Assembly (NCBI RefSeq): GCF_001677475.2
Contig: NZ_CP015229.1
DNA: 64,000 nt
From: Escherichia coli
GTDB lineage: Bacteria; Pseudomonadota; Gammaproteobacteria; Enterobacterales; Enterobacteriaceae
Reading direction: 5' to 3' (one strand)
In this document: in pieces, positions 19,485 through 53,902 of the stretch
Layout: each line of letters begins with the position of its first letter
Position numbering within the stretch: the stretch's first letter is position 1
Position numbers and translations under genes: made by a program
Notes under the pieces: generated by a model
What the model was told of the DNA's origin: nothing
The model's database searches: none
Seen by the model: the letters and a program-made list of their open reading frames with translations, nothing else

Positions 19485-20294
19485 ATGTTTTTAATTAATG
19501 GAAAATGTAACGATGAGTTACCGGCTTGTGACAGGAGCATACAGTTCGGTGATGGATGTTTTACAACGGCTGTGATAAACCGTGGGCAGGTAGTACTCTT
19601 GACCGCGCATTTAACACGTTTACGTGAAGCCTGCTCCCGTTTAAGCATTCCTTATTCCGACTGGTCTATACTGGAAGATGAGATGCAAAGTCTGGCACGA
19701 CAAGCTGAGCGTGGCGTTTTAAAAGTTATTATCACTCGCGGCAGCGGTGGTCGAGGATATAGCATCGCCCACTGCGAATCGCCTGGGCGCATTTTATCTG
19801 TCTCCCCCTTTCCTGAACATTACACCCGCTGGCGGCGGGAAGGTATTACTCTGGCGCTAAGTCCAGTACGCCTTGGACGTAATCCTTATCTCGCAGGAAT
19901 TAAACATCTTAATCGGCTTGAGCAAGTATTGATCCGCTCTCATCTTGAGCAGACAAACGCTGATGAGGCGCTGGTCCTTGACAGCGAAGGGTGGGTTACG
20001 GAATGCTGTGCGGCTAATTTGTTCTGGCGGAAGGGCAACGTAGTTTATACGCCGCGACTGGATCAGGCAGGTGTTAACGGCATTATGCGACAATTCTGTA
20101 TCCGTTTACTGGCACAATCCTCTTATCAGCTTGTCGAAGTACAAGCCTCGCTGGAGGAGGTGATGCAGGCAGATGAGATGGTAGTCTGTAATGCGTTGAT
20201 GCCAGTGATTCCCGTGCGTGCCTGTGGCGAAGCCTCCTTTTCGTCAACAACGCTATATGAATATTTAGCCCCACTTTGTGAGCACCCGAATTAG
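19485..20294 (+). CDS. pabC: aminodeoxychorismate lyase
   Basis: 269-aa class IV aminotransferase-fold ORF; K-12 synteny. Confidence 0.9.
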
Positions 20295-24053: not shown

Positions 24054-25487
24054 ATGTTTAAGAATGCATTTGCTAACCTGCAAAAGGTCGGTAAATCGCT
24101 GATGCTGCCGGTATCCGTACTGCCTATCGCAGGTATTCTGCTGGGCGTCGGTTCCGCGAATTTCAGCTGGCTGCCCGCCGTTGTATCGCATGTTATGGCA
24201 GAAGCAGGCGGTTCCGTCTTTGCAAACATGCCACTGATTTTTGCGATCGGTGTCGCCCTCGGCTTTACCAATAACGATGGCGTATCCGCGCTGGCCGCAG
24301 TTGTTGCCTATGGCATTATGGTTAAAACCATGGCCGTGGTTGCGCCACTGGTACTGCATTTACCTGCTGAAGAAATCGCCTCTAAACACCTGGCGGATAC
24401 TGGCGTACTCGGGGGGATTATCTCCGGTGCGATCGCAGCGTACATGTTTAACCGTTTCTACCGTATTAAGCTGCCTGAGTATCTTGGCTTCTTTGCCGGT
24501 AAACGCTTTGTGCCGATCATTTCTGGCCTGGCTGCCATCTTTACTGGCGTTGTGCTGTCCTTCATTTGGCCGCCGATTGGTTCTGCAATCCAGACCTTCT
24601 CTCAGTGGGCTGCTTACCAGAACCCGGTAGTTGCGTTTGGCATTTACGGTTTCATCGAACGTTGCCTGGTACCGTTTGGTCTGCACCACATCTGGAACGT
24701 ACCTTTCCAGATGCAGATTGGTGAATACACCAACGCAGCAGGTCAGGTTTTCCACGGCGACATTCCGCGTTATATGGCGGGTGACCCGACTGCGGGTAAA
24801 CTGTCTGGTGGCTTCCTGTTCAAAATGTACGGTCTGCCAGCTGCCGCAATTGCTATCTGGCACTCTGCTAAACCAGAAAACCGCGCGAAAGTGGGCGGTA
24901 TTATGATCTCCGCGGCGCTGACCTCGTTCCTGACCGGTATCACCGAGCCGATCGAGTTCTCCTTCATGTTCGTTGCGCCGATCCTGTACATCATCCACGC
25001 GATTCTGGCAGGCCTGGCATTCCCAATCTGTATTCTTCTGGGGATGCGTGACGGTACGTCGTTCTCGCACGGTCTGATCGACTTCATCGTTCTGTCTGGT
25101 AACAGCAGCAAACTGTGGCTGTTCCCGATCGTCGGTATCGGTTATGCGATTGTTTACTACACCATCTTCCGCGTGCTGATTAAAGCACTGGATCTGAAAA
25201 CGCCGGGTCGTGAAGACGCGACTGAAGATGCAAAAGCGACAGGTACCAGCGAAATGGCACCGGCTCTGGTTGCTGCATTTGGTGGTAAAGAAAACATTAC
25301 TAACCTCGACGCATGTATTACCCGTCTGCGCGTCAGCGTTGCTGATGTGTCTAAAGTGGATCAGGCCGGCCTGAAGAAACTGGGCGCAGCGGGCGTAGTG
25401 GTTGCTGGTTCTGGTGTTCAGGCGATTTTCGGTACTAAATCCGATAACCTGAAAACCGAGATGGATGAGTACATCCGTAACCACTAA
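24054..25487 (+). CDS. ptsG: PTS glucose-specific EIICB component
   Basis: 477 aa, polytopic EIIC domain plus EIIB with [11 protein letters not shown] phosphocysteine motif. Confidence 0.96.
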
Positions 25488-25546: not shown

Positions 25547-27736
25547 TCAGAATTGATACGTGCCGGTAATGCTGAAATTACGCGGTGCGCCGTAGACGAT
25601 AGAACCTTCCACGTTGGTATCGTAGGTTTTGTCGAACAGGTTATTGACGTTCCCCTGTAACGAGAAGTTTTTCGTCACCTGGTAGCGGGTGAAGAGATCC
25701 ACCAGCGCGTAGCTACCTTGCTCGGCGCGGAAGGTGCCATACGGTGTCACGGTGTCGGTATACACGCGATTTTGCCAGTTAACACCACCGCCAACTGTCA
25801 GCTCTGGCATGACAGGCAACCGATAGCTGGTGAACATTTTAACCGTGGTGCGTGGCAGATTAGGATTAACGGCGTTTCCTTCGTTATCCTCTGCAATATA
25901 GCGCGTTGCGCCAAATGTCAGCTGCCAGTTGTCGGTAATTGCGCCGTTGAGTTCAAATTCCACCCCTTTACTGACTGTCCCATCCACCGCTTTATAGGCG
26001 GTTTCGCCGTTGCTGCCGGGGATAGGTGTACCGGTGGACTGAGCGACATTATCCTGCTCAATACGGAAGATGGCTAACGTGGTGGTCAGACGGCTATTCA
26101 TCCAGTCCGATTTCAGACCCAGCTCGTAGTTGTTACCGGTGATTGGAGCCAGATATTTGCCTGAACTGTCACGATCATTTTGCGGCTGGAAAATAGAGGT
26201 ATAGCTGGCGTAGGTCGACCAGTTGTCATTGATGTCAAACACCAGACCAGCGTAAGGCGTGGTGTGGTTTTTCTCCATACTGTAAGTCAGCGTATCAACC
26301 CGCCAGTTGGTATAACGTGCGCCGAGGATCAGATGCAGCGGATCGGCAAGGGTGACACGAGTGGCAGCATATAACGATTTCATATGTGTGGTATCGTCCT
26401 GCGCCAGGCTCTGTGGTGACCAGTCGGTTTGTGGGAAATTGCCATTAAAGTGGTAGAAACTGCCAATTTCATCCGGGAAGATGTTGGCCCATGAACTGAA
26501 GTAACGATTGTTTTGTTTGCTGTAACTGCCACCAAACATTAGATTGTGCTGACGACCAAACAATTCATAACTACCGTCAGCGAACAAATCCAGCGCATCA
26601 ACTTTACGTTTGCCGCTGTTCCAACCGGTGCCGCCGACATAATCAAAGCCAGGTCCATAATTACTGTATGGCCCAACCAGCATACCATCCGCTTTGTTTA
26701 CATAGGCATCGACATACATCATTTTGCTGTCAAATTCGACTTCAGAGTGGGTGGCATTCAGCGTCGCTTGCCAGGTATCAGCAAACCGCTGCTTCAGGGT
26801 CATAAAGACCTTGTTGATCTCTTTATCGTTATACGCCCAGTCAGGTGCGGTACTGCGTGCGCGATCGTAACTGTTGCTGCTGCCATCAGTATTCCAGCGC
26901 GGTAAACCGCCCCAGGTTGGGCTATTAACATCAATGCGCTGATATTCGTAACCGGCTGAAAGCGTCGTAAGATCGCCTAAATCAGCATCGACAATGCCGG
27001 AGAAGAAGGTCTTTTCACTGTTGTAGCGGTCCAGCCATGAGTCGTTATTCTGGTAGCCGCCGACAATTCGCGCGCGGATTTTACCATCTTCGGTGAGTGG
27101 GCTTTGTAAATCCGCCACATACCGTTCTTTGTTCCAGCTACCGTATTCCGCCGAGACATCGCCTTTAAATTCACGACTGGTCGCGTGTTTTCGAATCATA
27201 TTAATTGCCGCAGATGGATTACCCGTCCCGGTCATGAGTCCTGTCGCGCCACGCACTACTTCTACGCGTTCAAACAGTGCCATATCAGAAAGTGCGTCGC
27301 CCAGATTCCAGCGCGATTCAAAATAGGTGGGGATACCATCAACCATATAGTTATCGATCTGGAATCCGCGGGAATAGTAAAGAGCACGATCGGAATCCGC
27401 CTGACTTTTGCTGATCCCCAGCGTGTTTTCCATCACTTCGCCCAGCGTTTGCAACTGCTGATCTTCCATCCGCTGCTGGCTAACAATAGTGACCGACTGA
27501 GGAATATCACGTTGAGTCATCTGCATTTTGGTACCTGCAGAGGTAGACGTTACGCTGTAATCATTTTCGCCATCATCTGGAGCTGTGGCTGAACCCTCAA
27601 CAATCACCGTTTCTTCAGTGGCTGGTGCAGCAAAAGCGGCAGAAGGTAATAGTGCCAGTACAATGCAACCGGCAAGGAGTGACGGTTTGGTGATGACTTG
27701 ATATTGATTATCCCTGTTAAATTGTGTTGAAAGCAT
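25547..27736 (-). CDS. fhuE: TonB-dependent ferric-rhodotorulic acid/coprogen receptor
   Basis: 729 aa, signal peptide, TonB-dependent receptor plug and barrel, C-terminal aromatic residue. Confidence 0.93.
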   Translation of the reverse strand: MLSTQFNRDNQYQVITKPSLLAGCIVLALLPSAAFAAPATEETVIVEGSATAPDDGENDYSVTSTSAGTKMQMTQRDIPQSVTIVSQQRMEDQQLQTLGEVMENTLGISKSQADSDRALYYSRGFQIDNYMVDGIPTYFESRWNLGDALSDMALFERVEVVRGATGLMTGTGNPSAAINMIRKHATSREFKGDVSAEYGSWNKERYVADLQSPLTEDGKIRARIVGGYQNNDSWLDRYNSEKTFFSGIVDADLGDLTTLSAGYEYQRIDVNSPTWGGLPRWNTDGSSNSYDRARSTAPDWAYNDKEINKVFMTLKQRFADTWQATLNATHSEVEFDSKMMYVDAYVNKADGMLVGPYSNYGPGFDYVGGTGWNSGKRKVDALDLFADGSYELFGRQHNLMFGGSYSKQNNRYFSSWANIFPDEIGSFYHFNGNFPQTDWSPQSLAQDDTTHMKSLYAATRVTLADPLHLILGARYTNWRVDTLTYSMEKNHTTPYAGLVFDINDNWSTYASYTSIFQPQNDRDSSGKYLAPITGNNYELGLKSDWMNSRLTTTLAIFRIEQDNVAQSTGTPIPGSNGETAYKAVDGTVSKGVEFELNGAITDNWQLTFGATRYIAEDNEGNAVNPNLPRTTVKMFTSYRLPVMPELTVGGGVNWQNRVYTDTVTPYGTFRAEQGSYALVDLFTRYQVTKNFSLQGNVNNLFDKTYDTNVEGSIVYGAPRNFSITGTYQF

Positions 27737-28069
27737 TTGAAATCTCTTGGTTTATGTTGTCGTCAGGCTCATGCCGGAGGAGGGTGATGAGCGGTTATAT
27801 TTAGTGTGCGAATAATTTTGCATGTAAATGCAAATGAGAAATATACGCATTCATATTTGACGTGTAAACCAAACAGAGAATGTCTTTTCAGCGCATTCGC
27901 AGGCAGAAATGGGAATAATGGCGATATATACGGCAGCAAAACGATTTTTTGCTTAAGAAATCGTGAGTTAAGGTTGAAAGAGCAGGTTTAACTCGACCAT
28001 ACTCTATACTCGCAGTGTGGCGCGGCGTAGCATGGCGCAACGCATGGCTATTTGAAAAAGGAAAATGTC

Positions 28070-28429
28070 GTGGCAGAAGAAACTATATTCAGCAAAATTA
28101 TTCGTCGTGAGATCCCCTCCGATATCGTCTACCAGGATGATCTGGTAACGGCGTTTCGCGATATTTCGCCGCAAGCGCCAACGCATATTCTGATCATTCC
28201 GAATATCCTCATTCCGACTGTGAACGACGTGTCAGCTGAGCATGAGCAGGCGCTGGGACGCATGATCACCGTAGCGGCAAAAATTGCTGAGCAAGAAGGT
28301 ATTGCCGAAGATGGCTATCGTCTGATCATGAATACCAACCGCCATGGCGGACAAGAGGTTTACCACATCCATATGCACTTGTTGGGTGGCCGTCCGCTGG
28401 GACCAATGCTGGCGCATAAAGGTCTGTAA
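28070..28429 (+). CDS. hinT: HIT-family purine nucleoside phosphoramidase
   Basis: 119 aa from GTG ([11 protein letters not shown]); HIT motif HIHMHLLGG; track ORF starts 18 nt upstream at TTG. Confidence 0.9.
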
Positions 28430-31960: not shown

Positions 31961-32200
31961 CCACTCTCACAAATTCGCTCAAATAATAAACAATAAACTC
32001 TGTTTTTTGATCTCACCCGGTAAAGTCGCCTATCTTTTCAGCAACAAAACTTGATTAACATCAATTTTGGTATGACCAATGCACCATTCATGTTATTCTC
32101 AATAGCGAAGAACATTTTCATTGCTGTAACCTGTTGTTAATTAAGAGCTATGTTAATAATCATTAATTAACAATTGGTTAATAAATTTAAGGGGGTCACG

Positions 32201-34965: not shown

Positions 34966-35205
34966 GATGCCGTTGTACCTGGTGACTGTGAATGGAAGGT
35001 TATTATAAAAATAATCACCTCCGTTCACCAGTCCAGAAACCATAAAAATAATTGCTTTCTATTTAACTGAAATTTAAAGGTTTTTAAATTAATTAATGAT
35101 TGTTATAAAAAATATCTTGTATGTGATCCAGATCACATCTATCATTTAGTTATCGATCGTTAAGTAATTGCTTACGACGCCATTCATCTGCATAAGGCCA
35201 CTATT

Positions 35206-53809: not shown

Positions 53810-53902
53810 TTTGTTTTAACCTCATTACAGATTTAAGGGTGAACAAATCCCTGCCATTGCTGGCATATAAAAATGAAACCGGATATTAATTACGGTGCTG
53901 TT

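Follow-up and report, generated by a model that had tools for sequence, protein, structure and literature searches.

A Fur operator over the predicted -10 hexamer of the fhuE promoter of Escherichia coli

Fur is an iron repressor, and the siderophore receptor gene fhuE is off when iron is plentiful. The promoter of fhuE carries a Fur operator that is real, ordinary, and already known, and this operator is centered at 27836 to 27842, over the predicted -10 hexamer (positions are those of the window, the whole stretch of 64,000 nucleotides that was analyzed). A preliminary description of this DNA had flagged 27737 to 27860 as containing a candidate Fur box of fhuE and had quoted an AT-rich 36-mer as the site. 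The flagged span does contain the Fur operator of fhuE, as indicated by a published prediction, ChIP-exo data, derepression in fur deletions, and conservation across genera. However, the operator does not lie in the middle of the quoted string. We consider it very probable that the span holds the Fur operator of the fhuE promoter and that a cluster of Fur boxes at approximately 27827 to 27857 acts by occlusion. The site had been regarded as expected biology, an apt reading, as a 2007 study had already predicted a Fur site at fhuE and ChIP-exo studies of 2014 and 2023 had mapped it. Fur repression of fhuE is established, and beyond a correct annotation the result carries little weight; the annotation is that the operator is placed precisely, at 27827 to 27857 with its primary box at 27833 to 27851 over the -10 hexamer, and not at the quoted string.

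Locus and promoter layout

The window contains the ptsG–fhuE–hinT region of E. coli, as judged from the list of open reading frames and a K-12 record with the same layout. The gene ptsG is on the plus strand at 24054 to 25487. The fhuE coding sequence, for the ferric coprogen/rhodotorulic acid outer-membrane receptor of 729 amino acids, is on the minus strand at 25547 to 27736 (open reading frame list and K-12 annotation), and its divergent neighbor hinT starts at 28070 on the plus strand. A 501-bp query over the region matched 5,425 of 5,426 complete E. coli genomes, and the annotation was always fhuE/hinT. Read on the minus strand, the flagged span 27737 to 27860 is the whole fhuE leader plus the core promoter. 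The quoted 36-mer occurs in a single copy, at 27807 to 27842, within that span.

Only one promoter-like site was found on the minus strand between 27600 and 28200, with 10 of 12 matches to the consensus hexamers and a 17-nt spacer. Its predicted sigma-70 -35 hexamer, TTTACA, is at 27863 to 27868 and is 98% conserved in 21 species; its predicted -10 hexamer, TATATT, is at 27840 to 27845, in alignment columns that are invariant or nearly so (alignment A1, described below). We infer this promoter assignment because literature searches found no usable mapped transcription start for fhuE.

The primary Fur box, with a 9-1-9 geometry, is AATGCGTATATTTCTCATT on the minus strand at 27833 to 27851 (center 27842). 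It scored 10.8 bits, rank 5 among 63,982 window positions, and encloses the predicted -10 hexamer, so that box and core promoter overlap. A second box, TATATTTCTCATTTGCATT on the minus strand at 27827 to 27845 (center 27836), overlaps the first 6 bp out of register and scored 7.4 bits (rank 27). A third, weak Fur-like position at 27839 to 27857 (center 27848; 2.6 bits) takes the predicted cluster as far as 27857, where the published MG1655 ChIP-exo footprint has its edge. The positive-scoring centers, 27836, 27842, and 27848, thus form a cluster with 6-bp phasing, an arrangement of Fur sites that has been reported in the literature. With the 9-1-9 matrix this cluster, 27827 to 27857, ranked third among 45-bp windows across the 64 kb.

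This layout suggests how repression would work. When iron is sufficient, Fe2+-Fur dimers, probably two or more on overlapping sites offset by 6 bp, would bind the phased boxes at about 27827 to 27857. The bound cluster would cover the -10 hexamer TATATT and the likely transcription start, about 97 to 100 nt upstream of the ATG (about 27831 to 27835), which would fall inside the second box. Because Fur would sit over both the -10 hexamer and the likely start, RNA polymerase would be kept off the only good sigma-70 promoter, a classical promoter occlusion. When iron is scarce, Fur would be released and fhuE transcribed.

Matrix scores and the classical consensus

Palindromic matrices were trained on 18 classical Fur-controlled K-12 regions, from which fhuE was excluded (fhuA, fepA-fes, fepD-entS, fepB-entC, fiu, cirA, exbB, feoA, ryhB, fecI, tonB, fur, sodA, fhuF, sufA, mntH, yncD-yncE, and ydiE), and they recovered the textbook Fur consensus. 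The best fhuE promoter site depended on the matrix. It was 27835 to 27849 with the 15-bp (7-1-7) matrix (5.7 bits; P = 0.39 against shuffles of the intergenic region), 27830 to 27848 with the 19-bp matrix in the classical register (6.0 bits; P = 0.33), and 27833 to 27851 with the 19-bp 9-1-9 matrix, built from 30 sites (10.8 bits; P = 0.038). The 9-1-9 geometry is that of the M9 model of Chen et al. (PMC2189734). In the matrix scan that the preliminary description had proposed, the site thus rose above shuffles with the 9-1-9 model but not with the 15-bp or classical 19-bp models, and the P value of 0.038 comes from one of three models tried and is lost on correction for three. For comparison, the leave-one-out medians of the 18 control regions were 15 to 17 bits.

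Matches to the classical consensus GATAATGATAATCATTATC were similarly modest. The fhuE promoter site agrees with it at 10 to 11 of 19 positions. The 11-of-19 matches are the 19-mers at 27830 to 27848 and 27836 to 27854, which run past the end of the quoted string; at least 11 of 19 matches were found at 349 of the 63,982 window positions. A search of the 64-kb window for GATAATGATAATCATTATC with up to three mismatches returned no site. The statement that the quoted string partly matches the Fur consensus thus holds to the letter, with 10 of 19 positions matched inside the string, but such a match is not above chance.

Four sites elsewhere in the window outscored the fhuE box with the 9-1-9 matrix yet have no published Fur peak. 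Matrix scores similar to or above that of the fhuE operator, up to 14.3 bits, were obtained at 19718 to 19736, 53872 to 53890, 32149 to 32170, and 35010 to 35110, and one of these high-scoring clusters is upstream of ndh. The window matches outside fhuE are probably false positives in AT-rich DNA, because published ChIP-exo data show no Fur peak in the matching K-12 interval.

Sequence evidence alone is therefore modest to weak and model dependent. It makes the site plausible without proving it, because the P value is uncorrected for three models and four sites elsewhere score higher. It could even be argued, from the two matrices of three that did not rise above shuffles and from unbound sites that outscore the promoter box, that the Fur likeness is a chance feature of an AT-rich promoter and that Fur controls fhuE indirectly. 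However, direct iron-dependent Fur occupancy exactly at the fhuE box has been published for at least five strains, distant genera carry better Fur boxes at fhuE, and fhuE belongs to a tightly co-regulated set of Fur genes, which makes a chance resemblance with indirect control extremely unlikely. The case for the operator is decided by this outside evidence, published data and conservation, rather than by the matrix score.

Published Fur binding and fhuE expression

For fhuE, Chen et al. (2007; PMC2189734) had reported a predicted Fur site of 12.4 bits, placed at position 1160880 of U00096.2. The coordinates were transferred with the fhuE start at 1161551 in NC_000913.3 and a 777-bp offset between the two K-12 versions. 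The prediction falls 106 bp ahead of the fhuE ATG, at window position 27842, the center of the best box, and its score agrees with the 10.8 bits of the 9-1-9 matrix.

In vivo occupancy was taken from published coordinates for other E. coli strains and mapped onto the window. Offsets from the ATG transfer directly, because all mapped strains have an intergenic region of 333 bp. For MG1655, Gao et al. (2023; PMC10164565, Dataset 2, with the data of Seo et al.) give a 33-bp Fur ChIP-exo footprint (P31) at 1160863 to 1160895, found in iron-replete cells only. It lies 89 to 121 bp upstream of the ATG, or window 27825 to 27857, and the predicted three-box cluster at 27827 to 27857 matches it almost base for base. 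The 13-bp peaks of W3110 (93 to 105 bp upstream of the ATG), BL21(DE3) (99 to 111 bp), ATCC 8739 (96 to 108 bp), and CFT073 (89 to 101 bp) map to window 27825 to 27847. The ChIP-exo summits of the five strains center at 27831 to 27841, and the fhuE footprints were mostly restricted to iron-replete cells. Strains W, KO11FL, and Sakai also have a Fur peak in the fhuE intergenic region (PMC10164565). The strain of the window would be expected to behave like the assayed strains, and the 19-bp box is identical in all six strains compared.

The positions of the peaks were checked because the ryhB peak lay approximately 125 bp from the established ryhB box and those of fecI/fecA appeared out of place. 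Among the control regions, 14 of 16 had a peak within 28 bp of an 11- to 24-bit box. The fhuE peak was accepted because of this proximity of control peaks to strong boxes.

Expression data point in the same direction. In fur deletions of eight E. coli strains, fhuE was derepressed by a log2 of 3.0 to 8.4 (8- to 330-fold), and the value was 5.0 in MG1655 relative to the wild type; hinT was unchanged in the fur deletion (PMC10164565). A fhuE promoter-lacZ fusion was repressed by Fur (Beauchene et al. 2015), and fhuE is a published member of the tightly co-regulated Fur-1 gene set. The searchable literature yielded neither footprinting nor a gel shift of fhuE DNA in vitro, and fhuE is absent from the sites tested by Chen et al. 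(PMC2189734).

The same MG1655 data include a Fur peak (P32, 1161165 to 1161198) that is labeled hinT "intergenic" and maps inside the hinT coding sequence, at about 28127 to 28160 of the window. This peak is iron independent, and hinT is not Fur regulated.

The quoted string and the downstream Fur-like cluster

The quoted string holds the Fur site only in part. Its upstream end, the last 10 bases, overlaps the best box, but the rest is weak as a Fur site, polymorphic, and poorly conserved, and the true Fur site is about 10 to 25 bases upstream of the center of the string. The first half of the string, 27807 to 27825, is not the operator.

A weak Fur-like cluster nevertheless covers much of the string, at 27805 to 27829, with centers at 27814 and 27820. 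If the main operator were here, around tgcgaataattttgcatgta, it would lie downstream of the transcription start. In favor of this reading, the K-12 version of this stretch has two centers phased by 6 bp at 6.7 and 4.0 bits (9-1-9 matrix) and scores 5.4 bits with the 15-bp matrix, and a position adjoining the main cluster could extend occupancy at high Fur concentrations, like published secondary footprints. However, in the window the two centers score only 2.4 and 0.8 bits. The cluster is weaker here than in K-12 because of a change to CA at 27821 to 27822, where K-12, BL21, and ATCC 8739 have TT. In addition, the stretch carries polymorphisms at 27820 to 27822, the part of the string outside the conserved core is only 45% conserved across species, and the five-strain ChIP-exo summits center at 27831 to 27841 rather than at 27814 to 27820. 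It is thus very unlikely that the main operator is at the center of the quoted string, and the downstream cluster is at most a low-affinity extension of the operator over the -10 hexamer.

The CA change also creates a perfect, strain-specific palindrome, TTGCAT-GTAA-ATGCAA, at 27818 to 27833, likely the 5' end of the fhuE transcript.

A Fur-like box within the fhuE coding sequence

The best match to the classical consensus in the window, 14 of 19 positions at 27700 to 27718, is not in the promoter. It belongs to a Fur-like box, ...AACAGGGATAATCAATATCAAG on the minus strand, at 27697 to 27721, +16 to +40 from the ATG within fhuE codons 6 to 13. With the 15-bp matrix this box scored 11.8 bits (rank 2), and both this matrix and the classical 19-bp one ranked it above the promoter site; its 9-1-9 scores were 9.5 and 7.9 bits. 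It is conceivable that it is a second functional operator, a roadblock or looping partner, or even the main one. The high rank by classical consensus and by matrix would agree with such a role, as would the presence of a Fur-like box near the fhuE start codon in several other genera, and we estimate at 1% or so the probability that so strong a site would lie by chance no more than 150 bp from a Fur-regulated promoter.

However, ChIP-exo revealed no peak at the intragenic box in the eight strains that have a fhuE intergenic peak, even though the same data report intragenic Fur peaks elsewhere, such as in fhuA. The promoter peak is 130 bp from the intragenic match and is not attributable to it, because control peaks lay within 28 bp of their boxes in 14 of 16 regions. 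The box has disappeared from Escherichia sp. MOD1 and E. coli SCPM, and in CFT073 there is an amino acid change within it. Its conservation, 48%, does not exceed that of the surrounding coding sequence, and it is not conserved beyond E. coli and its nearest relatives. We therefore consider it unlikely that the intragenic box is a functional operator; it is probably not part of the fhuE operator at 27827 to 27857.

Conservation of the promoter and operator across genera

A protein-guided scan covered 54 fhuE loci from Escherichia, Citrobacter, Klebsiella, Kluyvera, Raoultella, Enterobacter, Leclercia, Lelliottia, Buttiauxella, Mangrovibacter, Pantoea, Rahnella, and other genera, and positions -200 to +60 of fhuE were aligned for 21 enterobacterial species (alignment A1). 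Only two upstream blocks were deeply conserved in the alignment, the -35 region (TGTTTACA) and a 26-bp core, AATGCGTATATTTC[T/G]CATTTGCATTT, on the minus strand from 27851 to 27826. The core was retained at 23 or more of its 26 positions in 48 of 51 orthologous fhuE promoters, drawn from more than 15 genera (plus the window, by construction). The mean identity to the E. coli base among the 21 species was 0.98 for the -35 hexamer, 0.95 for the 19-bp box, and 0.93 for the core, versus 0.33 to 0.36 for the flanks of the core; the bases of the quoted string that lie beyond the core reached 0.45, and the intragenic box 0.48. The alignment across genera thus outlines the fhuE promoter and operator cleanly, and the limits of the core, 27826 to 27851, agree with the combined extent of the two best phased boxes, 27827 to 27851.

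In distant genera that differ from E. coli, the orthologous box fits the Fur matrix better than that of E. coli does, with 9-1-9 scores of 15.2 bits in Buttiauxella and Pantoea ananatis, 15.8 bits in Rahnella, and 17.6 bits in Mangrovibacter. In the Citrobacter/Enterobacter group the equally conserved box scored only 6.4 bits, so that its conservation there is greater than Fur recognition alone would predict.

One possibility is that the core is kept by a further constraint in addition to Fur and the -10 hexamer, for example a second dimeric regulator that recognizes AATG[C/A]G-N7-C[G/T]CATT. The strictness of the core (at least 23 of 26 positions in 48 of 51 loci) is well beyond what a degenerate Fur matrix needs. 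At the variable positions of the dyad, 21 loci have C..G (a perfect dyad, the 6.4-bit box), 5 have A..T (also perfect), and 23 have C..T (one mismatch), so two different substitutions each perfect the dyad, which hints at selection for symmetry beyond Fur recognition. However, the commonest state, C..T, is imperfect, and the pattern rests on two variable positions only. The core limits are those of the two top phased Fur boxes, and the -10 hexamer, discriminator, and start site impose overlapping constraints on the same bases. There are no Rfam family matches. No candidate for a second factor at the core is known, and the NsrR, NikR, TyrR, ArgR, CpxR, and PhoP motifs are not known to fit it in spacing. 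An additional constraint of this kind is improbable, and the overlapping demands of the -10 hexamer, the start site, and two Fur dimers are enough to explain why the core is conserved. Taken together, there is only a small chance that either a second dimeric factor or constraint acts at the fhuE promoter or the intragenic box at +16 to +40 serves as an E. coli-specific auxiliary operator.

RNA structure was also considered as a reason for the conservation. An Rfam scan of the fhuE leader and intergenic region gave no match, and the fold of the leader (z = -1.1) was not better than those of shuffles. This explanation was dropped because the fold is unremarkable and the conserved block is mostly upstream of the likely transcription start; explanations at the RNA level are unlikely.

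Variation within E. coli

Relative to the published K-12 fhuE site (U00096.2 position 1160880; peak at 1160863 to 1160895), the window has the same locus, position, box, and footprint sequence. Its fhuE promoter differs from that of K-12 at 27794, at 27821 to 27822 (CA rather than TT), at 27860, and at 27862, all outside the box. In BLAST searches the 36-bp footprint region was 100% identical in 4,064 of 5,422 genomes; with 36-bp queries, the alignments of control segments were trimmed at the ends and were uninformative there. One example of the one-mismatch class has its change at 27855, outside the box. The two-mismatch class comprised 137 of the 5,422 genomes, and in one example, E. coli FCI48 (L078), the changes are inside the box, at 27846 and 27848. 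The FCI48 box is AATACTTATATTTCTCATT, and the effect of its substitutions on the score, as estimated from the matrix weights, is roughly neutral.

Comparison with other Fur sites

The fhuE operator shares with those of fiu, cirA, fhuA, fepA-fes, entC, sodA, and ryhB the 9-1-9/7-1-7 inverted repeat, overlap with 6-bp phasing, and overlap with the core promoter, and it shares the TTCTCATT half-site variant with the boxes of entC, feoA, ryhB, and exbB. Its centers at 27842 and 27836, 6 bp apart, fit the overlapping-dimer model (7-1-7 of Baichoo and Helmann; M9 of Chen et al.), in which the two predicted dimers would sit on opposite faces of the helix.

Unlike in classical Fur boxes, most of the left half-site has given way to the -10 hexamer. 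The fhuE box is also much weaker than classical boxes (5.7 to 10.8 bits versus leave-one-out medians of 15 to 17 bits), although fhuE ranks with the genes whose derepression is strongest. This calls for caution in annotation with matrices: the operator of this strongly repressed gene scores weakly, its significance is set by the width of the model, and a better-looking match 130 bp away in the gene, together with several others in the window, is unbound in published data.

Other features of fhuE upstream regions

Two further features were observed in the orthologous loci. Most fhuE promoters outside Escherichia have a palindrome, CTGAAAC-N3/4-ATTTCAG, approximately 20 bp upstream of the -35 hexamer (loci L027, L031, L032, L050, L052, L059, L060, and others; alignment A1 columns 48 to 66), and it is absent in Escherichia. 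It could be a candidate binding site for a regulator.

Several genera have an extra, good Fur-like box beside the fhuE start codon, at -19 (L029, L031, L033 to L035, and L071), -23 (L039 and L058), or +2 (L050 and L055). It is TATTAATAATTATCA in the Citrobacter braakii group (13.8 bits), GAATAACAATTATCA in Klebsiella, and TGATAATGTCTTTCA in Leclercia/Lelliottia (12.8 bits). These start codon boxes are partly in lineages in which the promoter box is the weaker T-to-G variant.
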